Program-made: the position numbers and the translations under genes
The notes under the pieces: generated by a model
The model's input: only the letters and a program-made list of their open reading frames with translations
What the model was told of the DNA's origin: nothing
Database searches by the model: none
NCBI GenBank assembly: GCA_963662655.2
Contig: CAXXTU010000002.1
Location: 3,200,001 to 3,264,000 of the forward strand
Reading direction: 5' to 3'
Length of the DNA: 64,000 nucleotides
From: Candidatus Cloacimonadales bacterium
GTDB taxonomy: Bacteria > Cloacimonadota > Cloacimonadia > Cloacimonadales > JAIOQZ01
Shown here: piece after piece, positions 3,671 through 24,404 of the stretch
How the letters are laid out: every line of letters starts with the position of its first letter
Numbering within the stretch: the stretch's first letter is position 1

Positions 3671-4335
3671 GACTGGCGCATCGATAAAAAGGGATTTCAA
3701 ACGCCCTGGAAGCAAAAACATTGAATCGAGAAAATGATCTTGACAAAGCAGCGGCATAAATCTCAGATAAACTCAAGTCGTGTCTCAATTGTTACGTTGC
3801 TGAAAATCTTGGACATGGATTTTGAGATAATTGATGATGTCCTTGGAGGATGGGTTGAGAATATCTGTATTTCGGTTGACTCTCGCCTTGGAAGCCGCTC
3901 CCTGCAAACCTGTAGGGTGGAGTAGTTCCGGAAACGCGAGACCTTGTTGAACCTCCTCAGAGGATATTCGACCTATGCGCTTTTCGAAGTGTTGGGAACC
4001 GTAGTTTTGGATATGGAGAAATGGCTTGAGAAAACCTTTCGCGTCCTGGAATCCAACTCGTGAAGAGAAGAGGTGATCCATTTATATATCTTATCGGTCT
4101 TGTAATAACACTTTTACAGAACCATGTTCTACGCCACATCGGACAAAACAATTACTTCCCACGCTATAAACTGAATCGCAAATCAGACTCACTGCAGAAT
4201 GTGGGCATCAACCTCACATCGAAGCTAACTATATATAGAATCGTAAAATCGAAACTGGCAAGCCAACGCATGTTCTCAAACCATCACATCGTATTCCTTT
4301 AATTGGGTGCGATACATAAACAGAGGGGACGTACC

Positions 4336-10300: not shown

Positions 10301-10896
10301 AGATGTACCTGATGGGTGGCGGCACAACGACTTTGAACAATTCATGCTACGCAAATGGCACGAATGATGTGGTACTTGCAAGTGGTTCAGACATTCTTGA
10401 TGCAACGACGAACAACATTTCTGTTGATCCTCTATTCGTTAGCGCTGAAACCGGTGACTTGAGAATCGATGGCTCTTCTTCATGCGTGGATACCGGAGAC
10501 AACAACTACAACAGCGAATCCTGTGACATCCGAGGACAGGATCGCATTCAGAATACAACGATTGATATGGGTGCATACGAGTGGACAGTCGGCGTTGATC
10601 CCGGTGAATTGACAGCACCGGCGAATGTAACAATATCTGTCGGAGATAGCTCAATCCTGCTGAGTTGGGCTATAGTACCGAATGCTACGTCATTTATCAT
10701 TTATCGCTCGGAGTATCCTGACAGAGAATTTGTGCAGATCGGTACATCTGCGACGGAAAGCTACACGGACACAGAATTGCTGAGTGGATCCAGTTATTTC
10801 TATTTTGTTGTGGCAGCAAACCCCCTCCGAACTGATCAACAATGTGTAAACACCCGGCATCATCCCGGAGGAGGCAAACAAAAAGTTATCAAGTAA
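4336..10896 (+). CDS. Giant secreted right-handed beta-helix / choice-of-anchor Q repeat protein (5 modules) with FN3-like C-terminal domain
   Basis: Signal peptide. Five modules, each beginning I.VD..A.G...G.SW.DAF.SL and ending RGQ.RIQN.TIDMGAYEW. GGG-rich, Pmp-like beta-helix repeats. ATG at 4336 follows GAGGGG. Confidence 0.88.
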   Translation: MKNRKFSILLSVMALAMLLSVTSLSAETIHVDASASGRETGESWTDAFTSLHTALNSAVSGDQIWVVEGVYYATSSFMLSSGVEVYGGFAGTETLLTERDWQANQTILSGDIGQDDVNDDGNWITESWDQQVGTNADHVVVAPYGVDSTARLDGFIVTAGSGTTYYGGGGILNWYSSPSYYNLEIRGNQGQTYGGGMLNASSSPHVENVLIDGNRLINYLSIGYGGGMYNLYGGSPSIINVHFNNNLASAGGGYAGEDVNPSFDNVVFSNNISTGAGGGGVYLKDQSSATMNNTTFRYNQAFSGGGLYHVGGGTLTLSNVAFIENTVLSSEIINCGGGLEAAYGVTVDAVNVSIIGNTAADNGGGVSFTDNSIGTFTNCLFIGNRSVGGTIGGVRACWGSTVTLTNTTFNGNRASGTGGAFGTDWGANAISATNSIIWGNYPDQVRGSGISISYSNVQMDSGVYAGTGNINCNPLFLEAVDPLEAPTTGGDLRINGISPCVDAGENSFNSEALDFRGQARIQNSTIDMGAYEWTDGIDPSFQVIYVNAMADGNNDGSSWVDAFNSLQSGLDAAISGNHIWVAKGTYVPEDSYDLINTPRNYHFRMIEGVEIYGGFSGTETSSNQRTCYGVGEENETILSGDLNGDDVVSGTGETLAFSNYTDNCFHVIYNPDPLTSTSLLNGFSVRGGNADGTNPHNSGSGIYNFHASPSLTNVILIENQGIYGGGIYNQDASPVVTNCIIYRNIAQNGAGSENETSSPVFINTTIVMNLATNAGGGLNNHLNATPTFNNCIIWGNHALTGNQMYISGGGTTTLNYSCYSSQDNDVIMSGATFFADNNNTTENPDFWDATIGDFRLWENSPAVDNGLNSYNRTSTDVRGQARIQNTTIDMGAYEWTLGVDPYSIAGILYVDINAVGANNGASWMDAFTSLQSALDIAIPGDQIWVAKGTYIPSSSYNLTNTPRYYHFRMMEGVEIYGGFSGTETSMDERTNFGMGDENETILSGDRFGDDIVSGSGETLTFSNNSENCYHVIYNPDPLTTASVLNGFTVKGGHGNGTDSFDRGSGFFNSGASPSITNVTVTANEGDYGGGVCNYNASPIITNCLIFGNKTTNNSAGIENSTSSSPVLTNTTIAMNVAMYYGGGMLNYNNCSPVLQNCIVWGNLATTGNQMYLMGGGTTTLNNSCYANGTNDVVLASGSDILDATTNNISVDPLFISAETGDLRIDGSSSCVDTGDNSYNSESCDIRGQDRIQNTTIDMGAYEWTVGVDPPLQVIFVDILAGGNNDGSCWFDAYTSLQSALNEAVSGDHIWVAKGTYKPEYDYGLGGGSRYYHFRMVEGTEIYGGFAGTETGVDQRTNYGFEEANETILSGDLNDNDDFDVTNGGYQGTSGNDNCYHVFYHPDGMNLTNSALLDGFTITGGNANEGSNPHNRGGAFYVFSSSPVIRKVNFDSNKAESIGGAVYMYNSMSFLENVSFSNNISSNSGGGVYVYNGSPEFGCLSFASNYAYNAGAIYFRETTASIRNAIFTGNNSATDGGALSTHSSSLTIANTLFSSNTTTNNGGAIIFYSSSVQYDAVLNNVTISENHAGLSGGGIRFASDNVASTLTINNCVIWNNTATSSGNELSLVSTGSTTISYSCYKNLVNDVETLNGILDATNNNITIDPLFIDAFTQDFRLLGCSPAVNSGLNSYNRTSTDVRGQARIQNTTIDMGAYEWTPGVDPYSIAGILYVDINAVGANNGASWMDAFTSLQSALDIAIPGDQIWVAKGTYIPSSSYNLTNTPRYYHFRMMEGVEIYGGFSGTETSMDERTNFGMGDENETILSGDRFGDDIVSGSGETLTFSNNSENCYHVIYNPDPLTTASVLNGFTVKGGHGNGTDSFDRGSGVFNSGASPSITNVSITANVGDYGGGVCNYNASPIITNCLIFGNKTTNNSAGIENSTSSSPVLTNTTIAMNVAMYYGGGMLNYNNCSPVLQNCIVWGNIATTGNQMYLMGGGTTTLNNSCYANGTNDVVLASGSDILDATTNNISVDPLFVSAETGDLRIDGSSSCVDTGDNNYNSESCDIRGQDRIQNTTIDMGAYEWTVGVDPGELTAPANVTISVGDSSILLSWAIVPNATSFIIYRSEYPDREFVQIGTSATESYTDTELLSGSSYFYFVVAANPLRTDQQCVNTRHHPGGGKQKVIK
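6931..8141 (+). repeat. About 1.2 kb intragenic direct repeat, copy 1 (copy 2 at 9391-10601)
   Basis: Ungapped alignment at offset 2460, with about 18 mismatches counted by eye. Confidence 0.95.
9391..10601 (+). repeat. About 1.2 kb intragenic direct repeat, copy 2
   Basis: Same as copy 1. Confidence 0.95.
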
Positions 10897-12161: not shown

Positions 12162-13043
12162 CTACGCTGCGTTCAATATCTCGTTCGGTGTGCGGTAGCC
12201 CTGCGTGATGATGAGCCGTTCTTCGTTGTAGATCCGAACTGCTTCCTCTACGTACTTCAGCGCGTCGTCGAAGTCCCTGAATCTCCGTTCCAGCCCCAAC
12301 TCGTGCTTCAGAATCCCGTTGATGCGCTCCGCCTTGGCGTTGTCGTAGCACTTGCCCGGACCGGTCATGCTGGTGCGATAGCAGTAGCGTCGCAGCGCGT
12401 TCTGGAAGCAGGCGCTGGTGAATTGCGTACCATGATCGGAGTGGTGGATGCAGCCTTTGATATCCACGGCTCCGGCATTGCGCAACGACCTCATCGCCCG
12501 TTTCAGAGAGAGCGCTGGACCATGCGTGCGCAGGTCGGGCTGCAGCGAATATCCCAGGATCGCGTCCGAGTACTGATCCGAGGTCAGCGAAAGGTAGGCG
12601 AATCCGCGTTGCAACCGGATGTAGGTGATGTCGCTCGCGATGATCTGGCCGACGCGGCGAGCGATGATGTCCTTCACCAGGTTCGGGTGTCGACTGCGGC
12701 TGCCCAGGCTCGTGCGGAGGTATGAGCGGTACGCCGTCGACAGCAGCCCGTAGTCGCGCAGGATGCCGAACAGCCGGTCGCGACCAACCTCGAGCCCGTG
12801 CGCCTTCAGCATGTATTGCAGCTTCCGCGCCCCGACGCGTGGCTGTTTCACGCGAATCTCGCGCACGGCGGATACGATCTCCTCCACCTCCGCCTGGAGC
12901 CGATGGAGCCGCTTCCTGTGCTGGTAGTAGCTCTGCTTGCTGCGACCGAACAAGCCGCAAATCACCTGCATGTTCGCGGCTACTTCTCTTTCTTTCGCGA
13001 CAGCTCGACATTCGGTGATAACAGCGAACCAGTCTTTTTTTTT
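12162..13043 (-). CDS. IS3 transposase OrfB (DDE integrase core), read by -1 frameshift
   Basis: ASDITYI, IHHSDHGTQF and YDNAKAERINGILK motifs. Confidence 0.92.
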   Translation of the reverse strand, partial: KKKDWFAVITECRAVAKEREVAANMQVICGLFGRSKQSYYQHRKRLHRLQAEVEEIVSAVREIRVKQPRVGARKLQYMLKAHGLEVGRDRLFGILRDYGLLSTAYRSYLRTSLGSRSRHPNLVKDIIARRVGQIIASDITYIRLQRGFAYLSLTSDQYSDAILGYSLQPDLRTHGPALSLKRAMRSLRNAGAVDIKGCIHHSDHGTQFTSACFQNALRRYCYRTSMTGPGKCYDNAKAERINGILKHELGLERRFRDFDDALKYVEEAVRIYNEERLIITQGYRTPNEILNAA

Positions 13044-13387
13044 GCGCTGATGCCGTACTTGCGCTCGGTCACGTTCACGATCGCCTGCAACGCGCAGTTC
13101 TCCAGCACTTTCTCGCTCAACGCAGCCTGCAAATCCTGCACCTTCTTCTCCAGCTCCGCGATTGTCTTGTCCTTGTAATCTTCTTTCGCCATGCGATCTC
13201 GCTTTTGAGCTCCCTTGCGTCGCGCCGGCTTCACGGCGTCCTCTTTGATCCAGCGATACAGCGTGCGAACGGATATGTCGTACTGCTCCGCGAGCTCCGC
13301 CACGCAGTAGTCGCTCGTCAGCACGTGATGCAGAACACGCGCCTTCACCTCGCAACGCTTCGCCCGTCGTTTCACATTTTCTCCCAT
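12980..13387 (-). CDS. IS3 transposase OrfA (HTH)
   Basis: VAELAEQYDISVRTLYRWIK helix-turn-helix followed by a coiled coil. GGAGG RBS. Confidence 0.88.
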   Translation of the reverse strand: MGENVKRRAKRCEVKARVLHHVLTSDYCVAELAEQYDISVRTLYRWIKEDAVKPARRKGAQKRDRMAKEDYKDKTIAELEKKVQDLQAALSEKVLENCALQAIVNVTERKYGISAKKKTGSLLSPNVELSRKKEK

Positions 13388-13545
13388 ACCTGAGCCTCCT
13401 TCGACCCAACGGTCAACCTATTTCAGGACGGGACACTCTTTGCATTTGACACTACACGGATGAAGCCCCGCTCATGCGATGGTTTTTCTTGACACTTAAT
13501 GAAGGTCGTGCGAGTTTCAATATACTTTAGACATTGGGAGAAAAT

Positions 13546-14349
13546 ATGCTGCTTTACGATTTTCCGGATGCGTACGATCTCTTTTACAACGAGAGTTTCC
13601 AGCAATCGACCCGAGACTTCTACAGCAAGTTTCTGCTTAAGAAAAATCTTCGCGAGGTACTCGATTGCACTGCCGGTTCGGGCCAGATGACAATACCCCT
13701 CGCCCAGATGGGCTACAGCGTAACCGCTTCGGATATCAACCGCAATATGATCCGCAAAGCGAGGCTGAACTTCGTGAAGCTCGATCTCATGGCGAACTTC
13801 GTTACCAGCGATATTCTCGAGCTCGAAGAGAAGGTTAAGAGAACCTTCGACTGCGTCATGAGCACCGGGAATTCGCTCGCCCACGTGAAGAACGATCAGC
13901 TCGAGGATGCCGTTCGCCAGATGGATAGCGTACTCAAGCCGGGTGGGATGCTCTACATCGATTCTCGCAACTGGGACTTGATTCTGGAACGACGGCAACG
14001 TTTTTATCTATTCAATCCGCTTATCCGGGATCGTGGGCGCGTCAATTTCGTGCAGGTGTGGGACTACAATACCGATGGTTCGATGGTTTTCAACTTCCTC
14101 GTCTTCGAGGAGATTGAAAACAAGATTGTCAGCAAGCGCCAGTTTTACGTGATTTACTACCCCTTTACAGTCGAAAGGCTGAGGGAAATCCTGGTCTCGA
14201 TGAACTACAGGAATATTCATTTCTTCAAGCTGGGCGATCCGAGCGTCACCGACCTGTCACAAATCGACTGGTTCGCCGTTACAGCAGAGAAACCCTTCCC
14301 CGAAACAGATGACAACAAGAAGAAAAAGATAAAAGGAGGAAGCAAATGA
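13546..14349 (+). CDS. Class I SAM-dependent methyltransferase (glycine/sarcosine N-methyltransferase-like fold)
   Basis: VLDCTAGSG motif I, GNSLAH and LKPGG. Confidence 0.88.
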   Translation: MLLYDFPDAYDLFYNESFQQSTRDFYSKFLLKKNLREVLDCTAGSGQMTIPLAQMGYSVTASDINRNMIRKARLNFVKLDLMANFVTSDILELEEKVKRTFDCVMSTGNSLAHVKNDQLEDAVRQMDSVLKPGGMLYIDSRNWDLILERRQRFYLFNPLIRDRGRVNFVQVWDYNTDGSMVFNFLVFEEIENKIVSKRQFYVIYYPFTVERLREILVSMNYRNIHFFKLGDPSVTDLSQIDWFAVTAEKPFPETDDNKKKKIKGGSK

Positions 14350-14954
14350 AAGCTTTCAAACTACTTCTGGCTTTAGTTGCTGTTACACTGATTCTCACGG
14401 CATGCGGCGGTCCGGCCAAGACGGTCGAGCGCAGGGCGGTCGATGAGACCATCGACCTGAGCGGACGCTGGAACGACAGCGACCTTCAGCTCACAGCCGA
14501 GCAAATTGTGCGGGATGTTCTCTCTCGCCCGTGGCTGCCGGATTTCATTTCCGCAGAAGACCGAAAGCCGGTCGTGATCGTCGGTACGGTTCGCAATAAA
14601 ACCGCCGAGCATTTGGACACCGTGCCGCTGGTTAACCACATCGAGATGGAACTTATCAACAGTGGAAGGGTCACGTTCGTGGCGAATCAGCAGAAACGCG
14701 AGGAAATCCGCGGCGAGAGAATGGATCAGCAGACGCAATCCTCCGAGGACTCCGCGAAGAGACTCGCTGCCGAAACCGGCGCCGACTTCATGCTTCAGGG
14801 TGAGATCACCTCCATCGAGGACGCGGAAGGCGGACAGAAGGTGATCTTCTACCAGGTCGCGATGGAGCTCATCAATATCGAGACCAACGAAATCAAGTGG
14901 AAAAACACGAAGCAGATCAAGAAATTCATCTCTCAGAAAAGTTCAAAATTCTAA
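14346..14954 (+). CDS. lpoB: Penicillin-binding protein activator LpoB family lipoprotein
   Basis: Lipobox LTAC. DLSGRWNDSD, VRNKTAEH and GADFML.G.I motifs. Confidence 0.82.
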   Translation: MKAFKLLLALVAVTLILTACGGPAKTVERRAVDETIDLSGRWNDSDLQLTAEQIVRDVLSRPWLPDFISAEDRKPVVIVGTVRNKTAEHLDTVPLVNHIEMELINSGRVTFVANQQKREEIRGERMDQQTQSSEDSAKRLAAETGADFMLQGEITSIEDAEGGQKVIFYQVAMELINIETNEIKWKNTKQIKKFISQKSSKF

Positions 14955-14965
14955 GGGGATCGTCC

Positions 14966-16351
14966 ATGAGGAAAATGAACCTTGTTGCGATTCTTGCGCT
15001 GTTCGCGTTGCTCGTAGGGTGCGGCGCGCCGAAGAAAGAGCTTCGCGAGATCGAGAAGAAGCTCGAGAAGAGACAGTTCGACCAGGCATCGCAGCAGGTG
15101 GAAGAGATCAAGGAATCCACATATTCCAAGAAGGATCGCGTGGTGTTCTATCTCGACGCCGGTACCGTCCATCACTACAACCGCGATTTCGACAAGAGTA
15201 ACCAGCGGTTGGAGGAGGCGGAACGAGCGATCGAGGATTTATTCACGAAGAGCATCAGTCGCGCTGCCGCTTCGTATATCCTCAACGACAACATAAAAGA
15301 ATACGACGGTGAGGATTACGAGAATATCTACCTCAACGTTTTCAAAGCGCTGAACTACGTTGGTAAAGACAAGTTCGATGAAGCATTCGTCGAGATTCGC
15401 CGCATTAACAATAAACTCAATCTGCTTGAAGACAAGTACAGGGATTTGGCGGACGAATACAACAAGTCCAAGGACAGCAAGGCGAAGGTTGAAGTGGGAC
15501 GTAACAGGTTCCACAATTCCGCTCTGGGAAGATGGCTGAGCATGTTGATCTATCGCGCGGAAGGCGACATCGACAACGCGCGCGTGGACCGCGAGGCCAT
15601 CGACGACGCCTGGAAGACCCAGAGCCATATCTATGGCTTCGGGAAGCCGGATTTAAGCCATTATCTCGATGCAACGGACAAGGCGCGTATCGATCTGATC
15701 AGCTTCGTGGGAAAGAGTCCCGAAAAGAAGGCGCACACGCTGTACATCCACACGGAGAACAACCTGATCGTATTTGCTTCAACCGCCGAGAATGAGGACG
15801 GAAGGCAGGTCATGACGAACCTTGCACCGATTCAGTGGCCGGGGATCGAGAAGGGGCTTCACTTCAAGTTCGAGATTCCGTTCTTCGAGCCAAGAGGAAC
15901 CATCGTGAAGAGCGTGAAGGTTCTCGTCGACGGCAAGCAGGCCGGAGAGCTGGAGCTTCTGGAAGACATGGAAAAGGTCGCGATCGAAACCTATCAGGTG
16001 AAGAAGCCGCTCGTCCTCATGAAAACCCTCACGCGTACGATCGTCAAAGGGCTGGTGGCTGCCGAGGGCAAGAAGCAGATGGAGAAGGAGATCAAGGATC
16101 CTCTTCTGGCGTTCGGGGCGAGGCTCGCCACGGATATCGCCGTCGACGCGACGGAGAAAGCCGATCTGCGATTGTCGCATTTCTTCCCCGCGAAGGCGAT
16201 GGTGAAGGAACTGGAGGTCACGCCCGGCGAGCATCAGGTATCGCTCGAATACCGCGGCGCAGGTGGCCAGCTTCTCTACACGCACGATCTGGGAATCAGG
16301 GATTTTCAAGCGGGTAAGCTGAATCTGCTGGAGTCGTACTATCTGAAGTAG
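14966..16351 (+). CDS. COG3014-type lipoprotein with N-terminal TPR-like region
   Basis: Lipobox LVGC. Y.GEDYE and EKADLR motifs. Typical neighbour of lpoB. Confidence 0.75.
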   Translation: MRKMNLVAILALFALLVGCGAPKKELREIEKKLEKRQFDQASQQVEEIKESTYSKKDRVVFYLDAGTVHHYNRDFDKSNQRLEEAERAIEDLFTKSISRAAASYILNDNIKEYDGEDYENIYLNVFKALNYVGKDKFDEAFVEIRRINNKLNLLEDKYRDLADEYNKSKDSKAKVEVGRNRFHNSALGRWLSMLIYRAEGDIDNARVDREAIDDAWKTQSHIYGFGKPDLSHYLDATDKARIDLISFVGKSPEKKAHTLYIHTENNLIVFASTAENEDGRQVMTNLAPIQWPGIEKGLHFKFEIPFFEPRGTIVKSVKVLVDGKQAGELELLEDMEKVAIETYQVKKPLVLMKTLTRTIVKGLVAAEGKKQMEKEIKDPLLAFGARLATDIAVDATEKADLRLSHFFPAKAMVKELEVTPGEHQVSLEYRGAGGQLLYTHDLGIRDFQAGKLNLLESYYLK

Positions 16352-16387
16352 GATGAATCGTTGCTGCAACCCGATAAAGGAGATATA

Positions 16388-17401
16388 ATGCGTAAACTAA
16401 TCATAATCACATTACTTGTGTGCTCGGTTTTCCTGTTCGCGAAGAAGCAGGAAGCCCCCGAGTGGCTCGACAACCCCAAGTCGATCTACCCCGACGCGAT
16501 GTACCTGAGCGCTCTGGGTGAAGGCGATACGCGTCGCGGAGCTGAAAGCGACGCGGCGGGAAACCTCTCGCGCATCTTCGAGAGCAAGATCACCGTGGAT
16601 CAGACGTATCAGGAGCGCTACCGGGAATTGACCAAAGGCGTATCCTCCGAGACCGAGGAACTCTCGCAGATGGATCGCAATGTGGGTATCCAATCCGAGC
16701 AGACGCTCTTCAATATTCAGTTCGGGGAATCCTACACCGATCCCAAGGGACGCGTGCATATCGTCGCGTATCTCGATCGCATGAAAACGGGAGAAATCTA
16801 CAGCAGCAAGATCGAGGCGAACGCCAACCAGGTCACATGGTATCTGGGGCAGAAGAAGGAGACCGATGATCTCCTCAAGAAATACGCGCTACAGAACGCC
16901 GCGATTATCATCGCGACGAGCAATCGGGTTTTGCTGGAGCAGCTTCGCATCATCTCGCCGAATATGGCGGAATTCATCGACCTGCCCTACAAGATGACCG
17001 AGCTGGAGACGACCCTGCAAGAGATGGGGAAGAAGCTACAAATATCCATACAGATCAAGGGCGACGAGGAAAACAAGATTGCCAGCTCCCTGAAAGAGAT
17101 GTTAAGCGACGCCGGATTCAGTCTGGGCGATAGCGGTATCCTGAAAATCGATGGTGAAATCTCGTTCGAGATGGTCGATCTGGACAAGCAGGATCAGAAA
17201 TTCGTGCGCTGGGAGATCACGCTCGACCTGAACGATCAGCAAGGCGAAAACCTGATTCACTACTACGAAAAAGGACGCGACGGCCACATATCATATCCCG
17301 AGGCGATGGCACGCTCGATTCGAGAGATCGAGAAGAAGCTGAAAAAGCAGTTCATCGGTAAGCTGAACGATTACATCGATGGGTTAGTGATGACGAAGTA
17401 A
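16388..17401 (+). CDS. LPP20-like exported protein
   Basis: Signal peptide and PEWL..P...YP...YL...GEG motif. Confidence 0.65.
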   Translation: MRKLIIITLLVCSVFLFAKKQEAPEWLDNPKSIYPDAMYLSALGEGDTRRGAESDAAGNLSRIFESKITVDQTYQERYRELTKGVSSETEELSQMDRNVGIQSEQTLFNIQFGESYTDPKGRVHIVAYLDRMKTGEIYSSKIEANANQVTWYLGQKKETDDLLKKYALQNAAIIIATSNRVLLEQLRIISPNMAEFIDLPYKMTELETTLQEMGKKLQISIQIKGDEENKIASSLKEMLSDAGFSLGDSGILKIDGEISFEMVDLDKQDQKFVRWEITLDLNDQQGENLIHYYEKGRDGHISYPEAMARSIREIEKKLKKQFIGKLNDYIDGLVMTK

Positions 17402-17568: not shown

Positions 17569-18138
17569 ATGAAAAAGATAATCTTTGCGCTTGTGATTGT
17601 GCTGGCGATGTTTATTCTCGTGGCCAAGACGCAATCCTATCACCATGTGGAGCCCGGCAAGTGTATCGGCTGCACGCTGTGCGTTCAGAAATGCCCTGTT
17701 CAGGCAATATCCATGCAGGACGGCAAAGCGGTGATCGATCGCGAAAAGTGCATCCAGTGCGGTCTTTGCATCAAAGCTTGCCCGGTGACGGCCATCTCCG
17801 TCGTGGAAGAAGCCGCGGCACCGGATTCTCTTGCGGAACAACCGGATAGCGTCGATACGCCCAAGCAGGAAGAGCCATCCACAGGCATGATCGAGACACA
17901 GGAAGAACCTGCACCCACTGTGGAAGCCGTTGAAGAGCAGATTGCCTCGACTTACTATCACGTACACGATAATAAATGTATCGGTTGCATGGTTTGCCCG
18001 AAATCCTGTCCCGTCGATGCGATTCACATGAAGCAGGGCGTGGCCGTAATCGATACGGAAAAATGCATTAAATGCGGTCTATGCAAACGCGATTGTCCTG
18101 TTGCCGCGATCTCCGTGGAAGAGAAACAATCCAGCTAA
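17569..18138 (+). CDS. Exported or membrane-anchored tandem 2x2[4Fe-4S] polyferredoxin
   Basis: Hydrophobic N-terminus MKKIIFALVIVLAMFILVA. Four CxxCxxCxxxCP motifs in two domains joined by an acidic Pro/Glu linker. Confidence 0.88.
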   Translation: MKKIIFALVIVLAMFILVAKTQSYHHVEPGKCIGCTLCVQKCPVQAISMQDGKAVIDREKCIQCGLCIKACPVTAISVVEEAAAPDSLAEQPDSVDTPKQEEPSTGMIETQEEPAPTVEAVEEQIASTYYHVHDNKCIGCMVCPKSCPVDAIHMKQGVAVIDTEKCIKCGLCKRDCPVAAISVEEKQSS

Positions 18139-18165: not shown

Positions 18166-21100
18166 ATGCGTAAACAACGTTTACTGCTGATTCTGATGCC
18201 GTTGCTCTCCTTCTTCTTGTTCTACTGCACGGACAAAATCAGCAAAAATCCCGAAAACGACGGCGACGTTCGCGTCGAGTACTCGAGCTGTACCGCCTGT
18301 TATGAGTGTATGGACCTGTTCAGTTGTCCGCAGAATGCGATCTACATCGATGAAATGCGTGGAACCGCCACCATCGATCCTGATAAATGCGTCCGCTGTA
18401 TGCGCTGCATCACCGAATTCACCTGCGAGTACAATGCATTCACCTTCAAAGAAGATTTGATTCCGCCTGCGCCCATCACGGATTTCAGTGCGGTTTCCGA
18501 TTCGATGGGAACGATCGACATCAGCTTCACCGCGACGGGTGACGATTCCACGTCAGGAATCGCCTGGCGATATGAGCTCAACCTGAAAAACGCAAGTGGT
18601 GAAGTACTGCTCCCCGATTTCCAGCCCAACGCGCCAAAGATCGCCGGTTTGAAGGAAACGTGGCACCTGAGCGGCCTGGATTCCCCTCAGACGGTTGCCG
18701 TTGGCGTAAACGTGTTTGACGATTGCGGTTTGTACGCCTCTTCGCAGACGTTAATCGTGGATATTTCTTCCGATTATCCCGATGTTACGGCTCCCTCTGC
18801 CATCACCGATCTGATCGCCCAGCCGGATGCGGATTATGTCACCCTATGGTGGACCGCTCCCGGAGATGACGGCGATGAAGGCACCGCGGCAGCTTACGAT
18901 ATTCGATACAGCCGGACGGCGATTGACAGCCTGAGCTGGGATCAGGCAAGCGTCTTCGAGAATACTATTGCCCCCACTTCTCAGGGTGTGAAGGAGACCT
19001 GCCGGATAACATTGCCGGATCAGGCGAACTACTACTTCGCCGTGCGTGCGCTGGACGATAGCGGCAATATCGCGAGTGTTTCCAACAACGCCCAGGCCGC
19101 CATGACGGCGGACGTTACTCCTCCCGACCAGATAACCACGCTGGTGGCCGGAAACGAGACGACAACCTCGGTTACGCTCACCTGGGAGGCTGTAGGCGAT
19201 GACGGAAGCATAGGGGTTGCCGACGATTACGTCGTGAAATACCACGTGTTGCCTATTACTGCGCAAAATTGGCAAGCGGCCACGACGTACGACGCAGAGA
19301 TGTCTCCTCAACCCGCCGGTGAGACGGAAGAACTCATAATAGAAAACCTGGAAGAAGGATTTGAATACTACTTCGCGGTCAAGGCCGTCGATAACGCCGG
19401 AAACCAGTCGGCGATCTCCAATGTTGCCCACACGCAAACCGTGGACATCCCCGATGAGACGGCTCCTTCTGCAATCGACGATCTGGTCGTGAGCAACACC
19501 TCGACCAGCACCGCGCAATTGCGCTGGACCGCCCCCGGCGGCGACGGCGATGAGGGCTATGCATTTCAATACGTCGTCAAGGCGTCCACACAACCGATCA
19601 CCATTGATAACTGGACTGCGGTCGACGAAATTCCCAATGATTTGTCGCCACAGGTTGCCGGTTCGCAGGAATCGTTCATCGTGACGGGCCTGGAGGCAAA
19701 TACAACCTACTGGTTTGACGTCCGTGCGGTTGACGACGCGCTGAACATCGCAGATCTATCCAACGTCGCGCAGGGACAAACGGCATCCGAAGACGACACC
19801 GTCGCTCCAGGAGCGATCACCGATTTATTAGCTCACGAGGATGATCCAAACATCCTTCTGACATGGACATCGACCGGCGATGACGTCAGCGAAGGGACCG
19901 CGTCATATTACGAAATCAGATATTCTTTCGAGACGATTACCGGTTCCAACTGGGCGGAGGCGACACTTCTGCAAAATCTCCCCATACCCGAAACGGCCGG
20001 AACGCAGCAGCAATACATTTTTACATCTCCGCAGCAAAACACTGCGTATTACTTTGCGATCAAGGCTTTCGACGATGCGCTGAACGCGTCGGAGCTCTCC
20101 AACATCGCGGAGGGAGTGATTGCGGACGATATCGCGCCCTCGCAGATCGACGACCTGCAAGCGACAGCCGGCACCTCGGACATCGAGCTGCAATGGACCG
20201 CTCCTGGCGACGACGGCGATGATGGTACGGCGTTTTCATACGAAATCCGCATGAGCACGGTTGCGATTACCCAGGCGAACTGGGACGATGCCCAATTGCT
20301 GGAAAATCCCCCGACACCTTCTACCGCGGGGACGGCGGAAAGCTACACGGTTGTTGCGCCGCAGCAGGATCAGACGCTTTTTTTCGCCATTCGTGCGACG
20401 GATGACGCGGACAATGTCTCGGCTGTGTCCAACAACGCGGAATCGGGAATCTTCGATACAACTCCGCCGGCGGATATTACGGATTTGGATGCGACGCAAT
20501 CCGGTGAGGAAGCGCTTCTGACCTGGACGGCTCCAGGAGACGACGGTTTTACCGGTACGGCGGAAAGCTACGAGATTCGCTATGCCACGACGATTATCGA
20601 CGAGACCAACTGGGCCTCGGCCACGCTTCTGAGCAATGCTCCATATCCTGAATCGGCGGGAACGCAGCAGCAGTTCTCGGTAGCAGGACTCACGGCGGAT
20701 ATCCAATACTACTTTGGAATCAAGACCCTCGATGACGCCGATAACCAGTCGGGGCTTTCCAACATCGCCGATGTCACGCTGGGCGACGACACGGTTGCGC
20801 CTGCCGCCGTGACCGATCTCGAAGTGGTGGAAAGCTATGTGAACCTCTCGACGATCCGTATCTCCTGGACAGCCCCGGGGGACGACGGCATTACCGGCAC
20901 GGCGGATCATTACGAGATTCGTTATTCGAACTTGCCCATCACCGATGCCAACTGGAGTAGCGCTTCGCTATTCGGCAGTCCGCCCGATCCGGCAAGCGCT
21001 GGAACCGCGCAGACGTTGAATGTGACCGGCCTGGATGAGGGTGAATTGTACTACTTCGCGATCAAGGCGTTCGACGAGATCGGGAATGCAGGTGACTGCT

Positions 21101-21312
21101 CCAATTCACCGGCAGGGAAGATCGTCTACACGATCAGCGCTTCGCAGTGTCGTGATTGCAACCATTGCATCAACCGATGCGATCAGCACGCGATATACGA
21201 TGCGGGTCCTTACAAGGCGATCGATCCCGAACTTTGCATCGCGTGCGGCGAATGCGATCCGTACTGCCCGTACAACGCGATCAGCCCAGCAGTTATAGCT
21301 TATAACGACTAA
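18166..21312 (+). CDS. Lipoprotein with N- and C-terminal ferredoxin-like domains flanking eight FN3 repeats
   Basis: Signal ending LFYC. N-terminal CTACYEC-x5-CP and CVRCMRC-x5-C. Eight acidic repeats with consensus WTAPGDDG..GTA..Y.IRYS. C-terminal CRDCNHCINRC and CIACGECDPYCP. Confidence 0.88.
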   Translation: MRKQRLLLILMPLLSFFLFYCTDKISKNPENDGDVRVEYSSCTACYECMDLFSCPQNAIYIDEMRGTATIDPDKCVRCMRCITEFTCEYNAFTFKEDLIPPAPITDFSAVSDSMGTIDISFTATGDDSTSGIAWRYELNLKNASGEVLLPDFQPNAPKIAGLKETWHLSGLDSPQTVAVGVNVFDDCGLYASSQTLIVDISSDYPDVTAPSAITDLIAQPDADYVTLWWTAPGDDGDEGTAAAYDIRYSRTAIDSLSWDQASVFENTIAPTSQGVKETCRITLPDQANYYFAVRALDDSGNIASVSNNAQAAMTADVTPPDQITTLVAGNETTTSVTLTWEAVGDDGSIGVADDYVVKYHVLPITAQNWQAATTYDAEMSPQPAGETEELIIENLEEGFEYYFAVKAVDNAGNQSAISNVAHTQTVDIPDETAPSAIDDLVVSNTSTSTAQLRWTAPGGDGDEGYAFQYVVKASTQPITIDNWTAVDEIPNDLSPQVAGSQESFIVTGLEANTTYWFDVRAVDDALNIADLSNVAQGQTASEDDTVAPGAITDLLAHEDDPNILLTWTSTGDDVSEGTASYYEIRYSFETITGSNWAEATLLQNLPIPETAGTQQQYIFTSPQQNTAYYFAIKAFDDALNASELSNIAEGVIADDIAPSQIDDLQATAGTSDIELQWTAPGDDGDDGTAFSYEIRMSTVAITQANWDDAQLLENPPTPSTAGTAESYTVVAPQQDQTLFFAIRATDDADNVSAVSNNAESGIFDTTPPADITDLDATQSGEEALLTWTAPGDDGFTGTAESYEIRYATTIIDETNWASATLLSNAPYPESAGTQQQFSVAGLTADIQYYFGIKTLDDADNQSGLSNIADVTLGDDTVAPAAVTDLEVVESYVNLSTIRISWTAPGDDGITGTADHYEIRYSNLPITDANWSSASLFGSPPDPASAGTAQTLNVTGLDEGELYYFAIKAFDEIGNAGDCSNSPAGKIVYTISASQCRDCNHCINRCDQHAIYDAGPYKAIDPELCIACGECDPYCPYNAISPAVIAYND

Positions 21313-21328
21313 GAGATAAAGGATTCTC

Positions 21329-21565
21329 ATGAAACGAACGATTATTATTGCGGCGATCTTGATCGTTGCTTTATCGATACTGATTGCAGCAACCGAGACG
21401 AAACCGGAGGTCTTCCGGAAAGACTGTACAGGATGCGGTGATTGCGTAAAAGCATGTCCGGTGAAGGCGATAGAAGTCCACAATGGCAAGGCGGTGATCG
21501 ATAGCAGGAAGTGTATCAATTGCAAGCTCTGCACAACGAGCTGCACCTTCGGAGCAATCCGGTGA
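21329..21565 (+). CDS. Small exported 2[4Fe-4S] ferredoxin
   Basis: Signal peptide MKRTIIIAAILIVALSILIAA. Motifs CTGCGDCVKACP and CINCKLCTTSC. Confidence 0.85.
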   Translation: MKRTIIIAAILIVALSILIAATETKPEVFRKDCTGCGDCVKACPVKAIEVHNGKAVIDSRKCINCKLCTTSCTFGAIR

Positions 21566-21572
21566 GGCGCGT

Positions 21573-21845
21573 ATGAAGAAACTGCTGATCTATTCCGCTT
21601 TACTCATGATACTGCTTGGGCTTTTCATGACCGCCTGTGATAAAAAAGACTCGATCACGACATCCGCTTCCCCCTCCGCGTTTTACGAGATCGATAGCGA
21701 CGCTTGCATCTCCTGTGGGCGTTGTGTCGATGTTTGTCCATACAATGCCATCCAGTATGATGGGGAGGAGCCGGTCATCATCCAGACACGATGCAAGAGA
21801 TGTGGCGAATGTGTCTCCGTATGCCCGAAGGATGCGATCCAATGA
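21573..21845 (+). CDS. Lipoprotein 2[4Fe-4S] ferredoxin
   Basis: Lipobox MTAC, Ser/Thr linker, CISCGRCVDVCP and CKRCGECVSVCP. Confidence 0.85.
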   Translation: MKKLLIYSALLMILLGLFMTACDKKDSITTSASPSAFYEIDSDACISCGRCVDVCPYNAIQYDGEEPVIIQTRCKRCGECVSVCPKDAIQ

Positions 21846-23026
21846 GAAAAACCATCCTGTTTATCATCCTTGCAGGCATGAGTTGCGTTCTTCTCGGACA
21901 GACGGTTCTGAACTCCGAGATGGACAGCCGGGAAGGCTTTGTCGAGCGTTTATATCAATACTTCGATGTCCGGTTCGAGAATGGATTCGAGCTGAGCAAC
22001 ACCTTGTACATGAAGGTCAGCGAGGATCAGGACGAGCTGGAGCGGGATTACCTGAGAAATTACATTCGCGACAAGCTGCGTTTCTCCTTGTTCCGAGAGA
22101 GCTTCTATATTTCTTCGCACGTTGGAATTCAATACTATCACGACGAGCAGCACGAGACGCGTATCTCTGGTGCGGATGAGCAATACCGGCTCAAGAACGC
22201 TTTCTCCGGCGGTATTGATTTCTTCGGAACGTGGGACGGATTGGAGACGCTGCTCGAAGCGAGCTGGTTTGCGAACTACTATGATCGCTATGTGTTCAAC
22301 GACGCCGCGCAAAATTCCGATGATGATTGGGTCGTGAAGGAAGAGAAGAATCAGCTCGATAACGATGGAACCATCAAGGCGAGAATTGCCTATAAATTCA
22401 GCGATTATATCAAGCCGTTCGTGGAGGTGAATCACTTCAACGACATGAACGACATCGACACCTACGACTACACCGAGTACCGGCTCGGAAACCATTTGCT
22501 GAGCAAACTGGACAACCTGCATACTGTCGAGATGGAGGTTGCTGTCGTGAAGACGGACGCGTTCGAGAATCTTCCTGCCTATCTGGATTTCGATCTTCGT
22601 TTGACCAGCAAATATATCCATGACTGGATGTTCATCAACCGCGTCTCCGATAAAATCTGGAAGAACGATGACGAGAGCTCGAAAGCATACGGAAACGGTT
22701 TCTGGGAGTGTATCCTTCAGCATAATCTGAATTTCGATCGAGAGAACCGGGTCGACCGTTTCCTGATGGCGATCAAAAAGCATTTCGACGAGAACGTAAC
22801 CATCGCTCGCACTGGGTTGATGTACTACTTCGGGCCGTTCAGCCTTTACGGCGCATATCATTACTACTTCGGTAACGACCGTGTTAACAACTACAAGACC
22901 GGCATGGAACTTTCGTGGTACTACCCGGCTTACAGCGCGCGAATTTACTACGGCTTCTCGTTGATCGACGCGAGGTATGTCGAGAATACAACCGTTCACA
23001 GTATAAACATCGAGTTAGGCTATTGA
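21842..23026 (+). CDS. Predicted outer-membrane beta-barrel protein
   Basis: Signal peptide, alternating aromatic/hydrophobic strands, C-terminal SINIELGY (aromatic end, BAM-signal-like). ATGA overlap with the previous gene. Confidence 0.65.
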   Translation: MRKTILFIILAGMSCVLLGQTVLNSEMDSREGFVERLYQYFDVRFENGFELSNTLYMKVSEDQDELERDYLRNYIRDKLRFSLFRESFYISSHVGIQYYHDEQHETRISGADEQYRLKNAFSGGIDFFGTWDGLETLLEASWFANYYDRYVFNDAAQNSDDDWVVKEEKNQLDNDGTIKARIAYKFSDYIKPFVEVNHFNDMNDIDTYDYTEYRLGNHLLSKLDNLHTVEMEVAVVKTDAFENLPAYLDFDLRLTSKYIHDWMFINRVSDKIWKNDDESSKAYGNGFWECILQHNLNFDRENRVDRFLMAIKKHFDENVTIARTGLMYYFGPFSLYGAYHYYFGNDRVNNYKTGMELSWYYPAYSARIYYGFSLIDARYVENTTVHSINIELGY

Positions 23027-23027
23027 G

Positions 23028-24404
23028 ATGATTCAATCGTTGGCTGAAGGTTTTTCGCTCGGACTTGCGACCGGAATTGTTTGCCTCTCCACTTGCACGC
23101 CGATTTATCTGCCCTATCTGCTGAGCAGCGATCGCAAGCTGCTGAAGAGCTTTGGGGTGATCCTGGAGATATCCGCTGGAAGGTTCTTCTCTTATCTCAC
23201 GTTCGGCGCGATCGCGGGATTTCTGGGAGCGCAGATCGGTCAGGTGAATCGCGATTTGTTCACCGCGATTGCCTACATCATGCTCTCGGTGTATTTGATT
23301 CTCTCCGCTGTGAGGTCGCGGAACGAGCATAAAAAATGTGCGGTTCCCAAGATGGCTGCCATGACGCGCAGTCCTTTCGTATTAGGGATTCTAACAGGTA
23401 TAAACTTTTGCCCGGCTTTCCTCATCGCGCTTTCCAATGCGCTCAACCTCGCAGGCGCGTTGAGTGGAATGCTGCTGTTCATGGGATTTTTCTTCGGAAC
23501 TTCGCTGTTCCTGATCCCTTTGGCGTTGGCGAATTTTCTGACGAAGATCCGCCAGATGAAGCAGATCGCTCAGGTTGCTTCCGTGCTGATCGGTATCTGG
23601 TTCATCGGCAAGGGGCTTTTCATGCTCTATGGATACGCGGTGGGTACGGAGGTCAACAATCCGTTCGCGCCCGGCAAGGAGCTGGCGGTTGTTTCATCCG
23701 AAGCGGATATGGCGTATTTCACGGATTTGAGAGATTCGCTACAAGTTCGTACGGATGAGGCTGTCGATCTGCTAGAATTCAGCCCGGGTGGAGCCTTGGA
23801 GAAGAGGAAATCCGTGCTTTATTTCGTTAACCGGACACTGGTCGAGCAGGATTCAGCGGCATTCGAGGGGATGGATTATTTCGCAGTAGAAGCCGGCTAT
23901 CCCATCGGCGAGATGATGATGTATCTCACGACGGTCTTTCAGGGGTGTCCGGACGAAAGTGAATATGGTGACGGGAACAACAACCTGTGCTCCACATGCA
24001 CCCTGACGAAGGGACTTGATTTCTCGGGAAGGTTCCCGGTTGATTTCGAACAAAAAGAATTGTACATGATGGATGTGTTTGCTCCCGGAAATCAACTGGT
24101 CATTCTTGCGGACAACGACGATCCGTACTGGAAAGAACTTCAGAACACTTTGCAAGCCAATATACAGAAACCGATTCAGTTCATGCCTTTCGATCCCGGT
24201 AAAGACTTGCCGAACGAGGAGACGACTGTCTATATCATACCACAATCGGCCGAGCAGATAGCTCAGGACTCGGGGTGGATCGATTCGCTTCATACGATTG
24301 TCGTACCGAAAGGGTATTCGCCTCAGACCATCGCGGGATTTCTCAAGAAGTTCACGTTCAAGGTGGAAAATAGGCTAAGCTGGCATTTCGATGCCGACAA
24401 ATGA
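23028..24404 (+). CDS. DsbD_2/TauE-SafE-like multi-pass membrane protein with Cys motifs and a duplicated soluble C-terminal domain
   Basis: About 6 hydrophobic helices. GF.LGL..G..CL..C, GRF..Y...G and G...G.N.CP motifs typical of the DsbD_2 family. Confidence 0.72.
   Translation: MIQSLAEGFSLGLATGIVCLSTCTPIYLPYLLSSDRKLLKSFGVILEISAGRFFSYLTFGAIAGFLGAQIGQVNRDLFTAIAYIMLSVYLILSAVRSRNEHKKCAVPKMAAMTRSPFVLGILTGINFCPAFLIALSNALNLAGALSGMLLFMGFFFGTSLFLIPLALANFLTKIRQMKQIAQVASVLIGIWFIGKGLFMLYGYAVGTEVNNPFAPGKELAVVSSEADMAYFTDLRDSLQVRTDEAVDLLEFSPGGALEKRKSVLYFVNRTLVEQDSAAFEGMDYFAVEAGYPIGEMMMYLTTVFQGCPDESEYGDGNNNLCSTCTLTKGLDFSGRFPVDFEQKELYMMDVFAPGNQLVILADNDDPYWKELQNTLQANIQKPIQFMPFDPGKDLPNEETTVYIIPQSAEQIAQDSGWIDSLHTIVVPKGYSPQTIAGFLKKFTFKVENRLSWHFDADK

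Follow-up and report, generated by a model that had tools for sequence, protein, structure and literature searches.

The predicted lipoprotein described here has two ferredoxin-type domains, one on either side of an acidic stalk of FN3 repeats. It probably forms the outermost component of an as yet undescribed route by which electrons leave the cell without haem. More specifically, and judging from sequence, we put at about even the chance that a porin-ferredoxin conduit free of haem ends at the cell surface in this protein, that the clusters are loaded after Sec export, and that the gap along the stalk is crossed by collision. No such ferredoxin-barrel cassette was found in the published literature that we searched. 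The gene lies in a window of 64,000 nucleotides (the whole stretch of DNA that was analysed) from the genome (98.95% complete) of an uncultured, anaerobic member of the Cloacimonadota, together with the partner genes listed in Table 1.

Table 1. Stalk gene, its domains and the neighbouring cassette genes, with positions in the window.
Feature	Positions	Strand	Evidence
Signal-peptide protein with two dicluster ferredoxin domains and an acidic low-complexity linker; predicted periplasmic shuttle	17569..18138	+	
Stalk protein, lipoprotein ferredoxin-FN3x8-ferredoxin, 1048 aa	18166..21312	+	ORF, profile matches, alignment, model
Predicted Sec/SPII signal peptide and lipid-accepting Cys21, no Tat motif	18166..18228	+	
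Membrane-proximal dicluster ferredoxin domain, two CxxCxxC-x5-C	18268..18453	+	profiles, alignment
Eight acidic FN3 repeats	18454..21126	+	repeat analysis, model
Distal dicluster ferredoxin domain, groups with T9SS-tailed ferredoxins	21127..21309	+	profiles, alignment, tree
spFd, signal-peptide dicluster ferredoxin, 78 aa, core gene	21329..21565	+	
lpFd, lipoprotein dicluster ferredoxin, 90 aa, core gene	21573..21845	+	
Predicted 20-strand outer-membrane beta-barrel without plug domain, core gene	21842..23026	+	model
DsbD_2 (PF13386) inner-membrane protein with duplicated C-terminal soluble domain	23028..24404	+	

The stalk gene has a GGAG 5 nt upstream of its ATG, and its product begins with MRK, a hydrophobic stretch and then Cys21; no twin-arginine motif was found at this N-terminus. 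The lipobox (LFYC) is atypical in the source copy, many relatives have ISC, SGC or WGC, and the source genome encodes Lgt and LolA. The signal peptide, and a Cys21 that is invariant in all 30 aligned family sequences, back the proposal of the initial annotation that this is an extracytoplasmic lipoprotein. The first Cys of the proximal domain stands 21 residues past the lipid Cys (19–21 across the family), and both of its motifs (Cys 42/45/48/54 and 75/78/81/87) have the atypical five-residue spacer. The distal domain has two CxxCxxCxxxC motifs (Cys 995/998/1001/1005 and 1024/1027/1030/1034). Pfam matches (fn3, E 1.5e-41; Fer4, 2.3e-11; Fer4_7, 4.8e-9) include ferredoxin profiles above their cut-offs (PF00037, 43.4 bits against 21.1; PF12838, 37 bits against 27), and both end domains appear to be of the 2[4Fe-4S] dicluster type, with cluster binding predicted. 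Sequence and profiles thus agree with the architecture first described, namely a lipid-anchor Cys, an atypical proximal dicluster, eight acidic FN3 repeats and a canonical C-terminal dicluster; the WTAPGDDG motif reported for the repeats is exact in four of the eight and a variant in the other four.

The repeats are 109–114 residues long (n = 8); the first and last are position-specific caps, and the middle ones are interchangeable. AlphaFold2 modelled eight FN3-type domains (mean pLDDT 83, pTM 0.34). Over 891 residues the stalk has 140 D/E against 24 K/R and, as had been noted, no cofactor motifs: no cofactor or flavin site was found in it, and it holds three scattered Cys, five His and four Met. 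The flavinylation site [ST]GA[ST] is absent from both the stalk protein and the source barrel. Such a stalk, 30 nm long, free of cofactors, strongly acidic and flanked by acidic end domains, offers electrons a poor route. Structure searches by sequence returned nothing useful for the FN3 unit, only generic ferredoxins for the proximal domain and no useful solved relative for DsbD_2, while fold searches gave only generic FN3 arrays and generic barrels, and the Atlas matches were unnamed clusters of low recognition.

Both ferredoxin ends are kept in 62 of 71 distinct relatives, and an assembly chimera, a possibility raised at the outset, was rejected on this ground. In addition, a single short-read contig covers 17400–23609 without differences in each of two runs, which come from one sample, possibly the source sample, and so are not independent. 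Four of the nine relatives not scored as two-ended are cut off at locus edges, one is named partial, one has a helicase-like tail, two were apparently missed by the search pattern or start choice, and one (L099) truly has only the N-terminal domain. The named carriers are Cloacimonadota; two-ended forms outside this phylum were considered and rejected, five non-Cloacimonadota or unnamed loci matching the FN3 part only. The initial annotation had allowed that homologues might lack the Cys motifs, whereas the 16 Cys are invariant in 30 of 30 sequences; the ferredoxin core (Pro, AI, ID) is invariant too. The proximal x5 spacer is present in every first motif (69 of 69) and in nearly every second one (67 of 69); it also turns up in a cassette ferredoxin that is canonical in other respects (L042, L046). 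Of 64 relatives, 32 have only one residue (x1) and 7 have two (x2) in the spacer of the second distal motif, a shortening that could disturb a dicluster.

The two small ferredoxins, to which the stalk had been suggested to dock, are indeed encoded beside it and are themselves exported by prediction (signal peptide, lipobox), but their association is with the barrel, not the stalk. Among 54 barrel loci, from a set chosen for carrying a cassette component, lpFd adjoins the barrel in 53, and the stalk protein is present in only 26 of those. The order stalk, spFd, lpFd, barrel holds in 26 of 26 loci, a count that includes L002, where it is blurred by an upstream ORF extension. Genes for lpFd and barrel occur in 99 and 96 of 201 genomes. 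The barrel (~390 aa, pLDDT 86, with a terminal aromatic residue) matches no Pfam or NCBIfam family and has no TonB-type plug. MtrB aligns with it at Z 15.3 and rmsd 6.2, at rank 14, tied with many unrelated barrels and with no profile match. In one clade of barrels, DxxTGA[ST] occurs at a single position close to residue 41; the 140 barrels gave 7 strict matches against a shuffle mean of 0.58. The DsbD_2 protein has invariant Cys19, Cys23, Cys104 and Cys128, with C23-x-P25 and C128-P129 invariant as well; it is recognised by PF13386 and scores 15.3 bits with PF02683, under the cut-off of 27.1. It is absent beside 22 of 54 barrels and present without a barrel in 10 loci. A further partner gene, found at 14 of the 54 loci and unlinked in the source genome, is commoner than the cassette (159 of 201 genomes); we call it only NapH-like because PF12801 recognises its product and TIGR02163 scores 68 bits, below the cut-off of 213.

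The stalk protein can be replaced by other outer modules. For example, a T9SS-tailed ferredoxin fills the stalk slot in 7 loci and occurs with the stalk protein in 0 of 54, and such ferredoxins group with 11 of 13 distal domains (support 97/86, in a tree of 60 columns with unsettled bootstrap). An SP-DUF2271-T9SS protein with a TGAS/TSAS site is encoded no more than 3.4 kb from the barrel gene in 13 of the 21 loci that lack both the stalk protein and the T9SS ferredoxin, in the one locus whose stalk protein has no distal domain, and in none of the other 32; these counts are not independent, because the swaps follow lineages (DUF2271 mostly one family). DUF2271 is a tested ApbE flavinylation substrate (extract of PMC8238504). 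The [ST]GA[ST] site is present in 5 of 14 neighbouring DUF2271 proteins of relatives, and 8 of the 14 genes are on the opposite strand. In locus L102, a lipoprotein with a disordered acidic tether carries a ferredoxin that shares 58% identity with a distal domain, and a related cassette without FN3 stalk is found on two metagenome contigs. The outer modules found in place of the stalk protein suggest that the stalk is one interchangeable leash for the outermost carrier. The source genome has the stalk protein together with an unlinked T9SS ferredoxin, SprA and 190 CTD-like ORFs, and has no DUF2271 and no barrel flavin motif.

Proteins of this Fe-S type are normally cytoplasmic, or are exported folded by Tat after cofactor insertion in the cytoplasm, according to extracts of PMC10924467. 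No TatC was found in the source genome (the search control was positive in 11 of 14); TatC occurs in 7 of 201 genomes and in 1 of the 49 that match the stalk protein. No twin-arginine signal was found in 52 signal-peptide ferredoxin rows, and all carriers bear Sec or lipoprotein signals. The barrel, DsbD_2 and the NapH-like partner had escaped the initial annotation, as had the lack of Tat, which is the larger surprise. In addition, cytochrome c assembly (PF01578), MenA and a futalosine-pathway gene (PF02621) were not found in this genome, nor was a multi-CxxCH cytochrome among ORFs of at least 150 aa; its single UbiA-family gene adjoins a polyprenyl synthase-like ORF. It encodes ApbE and one NifU-type scaffold, and SufBD was not found.

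In the conduit that we propose, low-potential fermentation electrons would pass to an acceptor outside the cell. The NapH-like membrane Fe-S protein would move them over the inner membrane, without quinone, to periplasmic ferredoxins. The carriers would cross unfolded and acquire their [4Fe-4S] clusters outside the cytoplasm, with the four-Cys DsbD_2 protein perhaps helping by keeping thiols reduced or by delivering cluster material. spFd and lpFd would sit in or at the plug-less barrel, and the proximal domain of the stalk protein would act on the membrane surface, close to where the barrel opens. One FN3 domain is 3.5–4 nm long, and the stalk would serve as a leash of ~15–50 nm on which the distal domain passes through the surface layer. 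The gap would be crossed not by conduction but by collision, either by bending to the molecule's own or a neighbour's proximal domain, or through soluble mediators.

The main rival is that exported apo-ferredoxin domains scavenge Fe/S or another thiophilic metal at the surface, which we consider unlikely. Export as apo-protein, as expected in the absence of Tat, the four invariant Cys of DsbD_2 and the single NifU-type scaffold without SufBD would all suit it; the distal motif is shortened in 39 of 64 relatives, and a capture role requires no electron path along the stalk. The stalk would then widen the catch range, and the load would pass through the barrel and the periplasmic ferredoxins into the cell via DsbD_2, a route that is equally improbable and sits poorly with a barrel without TonB-type plug. 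Fur and FeoB do follow the cassette in L089, but this linkage is seen in 1 of 54 loci, and Fur-like boxes upstream (3 of 51, shuffle mean 1.6) are not enriched, nor are Rex boxes (2 of 51); a promoter and terminator scan was at chance level. The flavin-site DUF2271 that replaces the distal ferredoxin, the flavin-type motifs of some barrels and the NapH-like gene point instead to electrons.

The number of FN3 repeats, which the initial annotation proposed to check among homologues, varies from 4 to 14 in two-ended relatives, with four the commonest (21 of 62), and the linkers between repeats are of a few residues; the 12-repeat copy (G053) has a stop codon in its N-terminal match. These lengths bear on the swinging arm proposed initially, in which the molecule folds back, its distal domain is charged by its own proximal domain, and it then extends to deliver. 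Retention of both ends in 62 of 71 relatives, the conserved first and last FN3 caps, and a model that predicts no fixed inter-domain arrangement (pTM 0.34) would be consistent with such an arm, yet looping back is hard with four repeats and such short linkers, and both the stalk and its ends are acidic. Moreover, the two ends share a mean of 18% identity outside Cys and fall in separate tree groups, which led us to reject internal duplication of one ferredoxin as their origin. As distinct lineages that occur separately in relatives, on a stalk of unconstrained length, they need not exchange electrons within one molecule, and we hold the swinging arm to be quite improbable.

The location of a lipoprotein cannot be read with certainty from sequence, which leaves room for a strut that spans the periplasm, anchored on the inner membrane or on the inner leaflet of the outer membrane; its two ferredoxin ends would link the NapH-like or DsbD_2 proteins to the barrel. 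It would fit that, of the first 24 stalk loci, 12 have an adjacent NapH-like gene. The periplasm is about 15–25 nm wide, and 4–14 repeats are too variable for a fixed width. Two or more acidic residues follow the lipid Cys in 52 of 67 stalk-family members (lpFd is basic there instead, with 4 of 53), and Asp stands at +3 in 66 of 67, compared to 12 of 118 predicted lipoproteins of the source genome. This signature resembles the surface-export signal of Bacteroidetes, a polar residue followed by two or more acids (extract of PMC5080379), a rule whose basis is another phylum. The source copy (T-D-K-I-S) has a single acid and so misses the two-acid rule, which favours the strut, whereas the signature is family-wide. 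The distal domain groups with T9SS cargo, and the same FN3 type is found in proteins with T9SS, dockerin and carbohydrate-binding domains (Pfam). Both the strut and the linkage it would make thus seem to us very unlikely. As CcdA has a Cys-Pro pattern in helices 1 and 4 and DsbD_2 shows the same, Sec-exported Cys motifs could in principle be fed by this CcdA-like protein and cycle metal-free between dithiol and disulfide outside the cell, as an envelope redox buffer or in polysulfide reduction, but the mechanism and either role are highly implausible, since a relay would not need the invariance seen in the eight Cys together with the core (Pro, AI, ID), and 22 of 54 barrel loci have no adjacent DsbD_2.

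The porin-ferredoxin conduit would share its plan with MtrCAB, PioAB/MtoAB, Geobacter Pcc and PCC3/PCC4 as extracts of PMC5566968 describe them: an inner-membrane redox protein, a periplasmic carrier, a barrel and a surface lipoprotein, with a variable outer module. It differs in having no haem or haem-attachment genes, carriers that are 2[4Fe-4S]-type ferredoxins, a 20-strand barrel of ~390 aa where 24–32 strands are reported for MtoB/PioB (same extracts), and a cofactor-free stalk in place of a haem chain. NapGH and NapH-like modules likewise combine a PF12801 membrane Fe-S protein with extracytosolic carriers (extract of PMC8238504); here, the partners have Sec signals in Tat-less genomes, menaquinone genes were not found, and an outer-membrane barrel is included. 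With ApbE-flavinylated systems (DUF2271, DUF3570-DsbD; extracts of PMC8238504 and PMC11334425) cassette relatives share DUF2271, TGAS-type motifs and a DsbD-family protein, but the source-cassette proteins have no flavinylation motif. The ferredoxin-barrel cassette is absent from those extracts, with 'porin' in neither and 'barrel' not in that of PMC11334425. The eight-Cys dicluster fold is that of clostridial-type 2[4Fe-4S] ferredoxins and Tat-exported Fe-S proteins (extract of PMC10924467), and the cassette ferredoxins differ from the Tat type (NapG, HybA) in their Sec, SPII or T9SS signals and the lack of TatC. Finally, the repeats are of the WTAPGDD type of FN3 arrays (TIGR00868 CLCA C-terminal region, E 9.5e-69, far below the family cut-off; FCB FN3 surface proteins), and 71 of the 120 matches listed share only FN3 repeats with the stalk protein; other proteins of this type carry enzyme, binding or sorting domains, not ferredoxins.

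Taken as one joint claim, we tentatively suggest, at somewhat less than even chances, a third chemistry of extracellular electron transfer in diderms after haem and flavin: ferredoxins exported unfolded, loaded with Fe-S outside the cytoplasm and threaded through their own barrel, with a swappable surface module (an FN3-leashed ferredoxin, a T9SS ferredoxin or a T9SS flavoprotein), in about half of Cloacimonadota genomes, able to supply minerals or syntrophic partners with electrons at about −400 mV. Screens that count CxxCH motifs or look for flavin loci are blind to such a system. It would consist of small parts that lend themselves to tests in E. coli or in vitro, and the natural series of 4–14 repeats could serve as a ruler in studies of how a gap is bridged by a carrier on a tether. 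If true, it would break the rule that Fe-S proteins load their clusters in the cytoplasm and exit by Tat. Digesters, anoxic lakes and sediments commonly harbour Cloacimonadota, and in such habitats interspecies electron transfer is often invoked although no conductor is known; the conduit would give fermenters without cytochromes or quinones a direct route of electron exchange.

The stalk protein, a predicted lipoprotein with a ferredoxin domain at both ends of an FN3 array, is real, conserved and unusual. Its short, basic N-terminus is followed by a hydrophobic stretch and Cys21. As the initial annotation described, the proximal (N-terminal) domain carries two atypical CxxCxxC-x5-C motifs (Cys42-87), and the distal (C-terminal) domain carries two canonical CxxCxxCxxxC motifs (Cys995-1034). 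Between them lie eight very acidic repeats of 109-114 aa each (140 D/E vs 24 K/R over the 891-aa stalk), and both fn3 and Fer4 domains score above the Pfam cut-off; the WTAPGDDG word ascribed to the repeats is exact in four of the eight, the others having no exact copy. A stalk free of cofactor motifs had also been proposed, and agrees with its three scattered Cys and with a motif scan of the protein that found no flavin motif. AlphaFold2, run on a 30-row alignment, gave eight well-formed FN3 domains, moderate confidence for the distal domain, low confidence for the proximal one and a pTM of 0.34, which suggests that the protein has no fixed overall shape. The concern that the ferredoxin ends are an assembly chimera can be set aside, as contigs from two runs of one sample cover the whole gene and show no differences, and both ends are kept in 62 of the 71 distinct sequences pooled from proteins and loci.

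A query with residues 1-330 returned 375 matches; among the best 120 examined, 49 have ferredoxin motifs and 71 have FN3 repeats only, and the named carriers of the stalk protein among these are Cloacimonadota. FN3 number, earlier singled out for comparison among homologues, varies from 4 to 14 across the 62 two-ended relatives: 4 (21 sequences), 5 (15), 6 (16), 7 (2), 8 (6), 12 (1) and 14 (1). The sequences of the first and of the last repeat are tied to their positions, and the repeats in the middle can stand in for one another, which points to a spacer that is lengthened or shortened between fixed caps. In nearly all relatives, the first cluster Cys lies 19-21 residues past the lipid Cys. 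The proximal x5 spacer is constant (69/69 in the first motif, 67/69 in the second), and among 64 relatives the last distal spacer is x1 in 32, x2 in 7 and x3 in 25. Matches occur in 49 of 201 sampled genomes, a few through FN3 alone, and in none of the 88 genomes of family f2.

The stalk gene sits in a six-gene run: a signal-peptide double ferredoxin, the stalk protein, a signal-peptide ferredoxin (spFd), a lipoprotein ferredoxin (lpFd), a 394-aa unannotated protein and a DsbD_2 inner-membrane protein. The 394-aa protein is predicted to be a 20-strand barrel without a plug (pLDDT 86, pTM 0.75), and a fold search with this model matched generic outer-membrane barrels only. Of 64 loci, 24 were selected for the stalk gene, 20 for DsbD_2 and 20 for the barrel. 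The barrel is present in 54 of them, of which 53 also carry lpFd, 52 spFd, 32 DsbD_2, 26 the stalk gene and 14 a NapH-like membrane Fe-S protein. Across the 201 genomes the barrel is found in 96, lpFd in 99, DsbD_2 in 85 and NapH-like proteins in 159. From these counts we take spFd-lpFd-barrel to be the core and the stalk protein to be accessory. In three sister genomes the DsbD_2 gene is separate from the cassette, and in two loci it adjoins a NapH-like gene (see table); this pair suggests an inner-membrane module able to work alone. Two cassettes with very different neighbours, L102 and L103, possibly lie outside Cloacimonadota.

Features of the window, of contig C2 of the source genome (G000) and of loci from relatives
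Feature	Location	Strand	Description
Stalk protein	window 18166-21312	+	ORF, 1048 aa
DsbD_2 (PF13386) protein	window 23028-24404		C-terminal soluble domain duplicated in genus, 458 aa vs about 330
LpoB-family lipoprotein, 461-aa lipoprotein, LPP20 protein	window 14346-17401		consecutive, upstream of cassette; trio not kept beside cassette in relatives
IS3-type transposase-like ORFs	window 12162-13409	-	labelled by sequence appearance
Secreted 2197-aa protein	window 4303-10896		repeated beta-helix modules, one near-identical internal duplication
NapH-like (PF12801) gene	C2:1473513-1474361		only one in G000
T9SS-tailed ferredoxin	C2:1563089-1564069	-	outside window; signal peptide, dicluster ferredoxin, middle domain, T9SS-type tail
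UbiA-family gene	C2:1783390-1785149		sole one in G000; adjoins polyprenyl synthase-like gene
DsbD_2 adjoining NapH-like gene	L072:7888-9629; L067:5193-7552		barrel absent from fetched stretch
Fur and FeoB	L089:7710-10431		immediately follow the most complete cassette (seven genes)
Cassettes with very different neighbours	L102:2277-4667; L103:4172-6196		same ferredoxin-lipoprotein-barrel cassette
DUF2271-T9SS proteins (14 loci)	L082-L097, L099 (e.g. L099:1896-3077)		about 360-390 aa; predicted T9SS-exported flavinylation substrate
Other secreted DUF2271 proteins	L104-L115		510-560 aa, TPR-like at the start, VTGAS in DUF2271; in many Cloacimonadota, with no linkage to ferredoxins

The layout resembles a porin-cytochrome conduit, but the cassette is without haem and does not belong to that class; nor do its ferredoxins belong with Tat-exported Fe-S systems. 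A search of G000 (98.95% complete, 2 contigs) found no TatC, and TatC matches occur in 7 of the 201 genomes, one of them among the 49 stalk-protein carriers. Lgt, LolA, SprA and ApbE were found in G000, as was one NifU-type gene; cytochrome c assembly, MenA, a futalosine gene and SufBD were not. Given the phylum, its UbiA-family gene may act in making ether lipids, not quinones. By the accepted rule, stated in PMC10924467, Fe-S proteins receive their cofactors in the cytoplasm, and Tat export is hence necessary. The cassette ferredoxins would have to be loaded with clusters after export. In vitro, small dicluster ferredoxins can take up their clusters from Fe2+, sulfide and thiol. Residues behind the lipid Cys are acidic in the stalk family (D at +3 in 66/67) and basic in lpFd; the acidic stretch resembles the Bacteroidetes surface signals SDDDD and SDDFE given in PMC5080379, and the window's stalk protein has just one acid there.

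In the literature searched, with subscription journals largely outside it, no paper joined Cloacimonadota, ferredoxin and fibronectin. No description of the cassette appeared in titles or abstract openings, and the supplements of PMC8542988 and PMC8238504 may list its genes. The passages shown of PMC8542988 treat fermentation and Rnf, with no match to "fibronectin" and no such cassette, and those of PMC7382037 suggest conductive pili for Cloacimonadota; parts of PMC12057145, PMC11334425 and PMC5566968 were also compared.

Four outer modules alternate across cassette loci; the swaps follow lineages, and the counts below are not independent. First, the stalk gene lies immediately upstream of spFd (26/26 loci). 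Second, a signal peptide-ferredoxin-T9SS tail gene occupies the same slot in 7 loci, and no locus has it together with the stalk gene. Seven such ferredoxins, six from loci and one from G000, cluster with 11 of 13 distal domains at 97/86 support, though the tree has 81 rows over just 60 columns and its bootstrap is unsettled; the G000 ferredoxin groups with those of other cassettes. Third, of the 21 loci lacking both of these modules, 13 encode a signal peptide-DUF2271-T9SS protein no more than 3.4 kb from the barrel; so does L099, whose stalk protein has no distal domain, and none of the remaining 32 does. Eight of the 14 genes are on the opposite strand, and their flavinylation-type site is a strict TGAS in 5 and TSAS/SSAS in 9; flavinylation of DUF2271 by ApbE has been shown by experiment (PMC8238504). 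Fourth, the metagenome contig L102 encodes a lipoprotein whose disordered acidic tether holds a ferredoxin with 58% identity to a distal domain. In one barrel clade (L003, L049, L053, L054, L058), a loop inserted behind strand 1, near residue 41, carries DxxTGA[ST], an ApbE-type motif that the window's barrel lacks.

A porin-ferredoxin conduit with outward electron flow is the mechanism that we favour, and we consider it about as likely as not. The NapH-like protein would pass electrons to periplasmic ferredoxins, these to spFd/lpFd located at the barrel, these in turn to the proximal domain of the stalk protein, and that to the leashed distal domain and an acceptor outside the cell. The sequences establish the gene set, the signals, the absence of Tat, haem and quinone genes and the module swaps, and each transfer step is our inference. 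Against the conduit stand the shortened x1 and x2 distal motifs of relatives, a NapH-like gene more widespread than the cassette, the absence of DsbD_2 beside 22 of 54 barrels and its presence without a barrel in 10 loci, and the Fur-FeoB pair that follows one cassette; a scan upstream of cassettes gave no signal for Fur or Rex. The FN3 rise per domain gives a stalk of about 30 nm here, and the tunnelling limit is 1.4 nm, so that transfer over this non-conducting stalk must be by collision, within one molecule or between molecules. An obligate swinging arm is made less likely by stalks that are short and self-repelling and by ends that occur on their own. Across the cassettes the means of display changes and a redox-type head stays, and a flavin-site protein can replace an Fe-S one; this pattern is the main argument for a role with electrons over metal capture.
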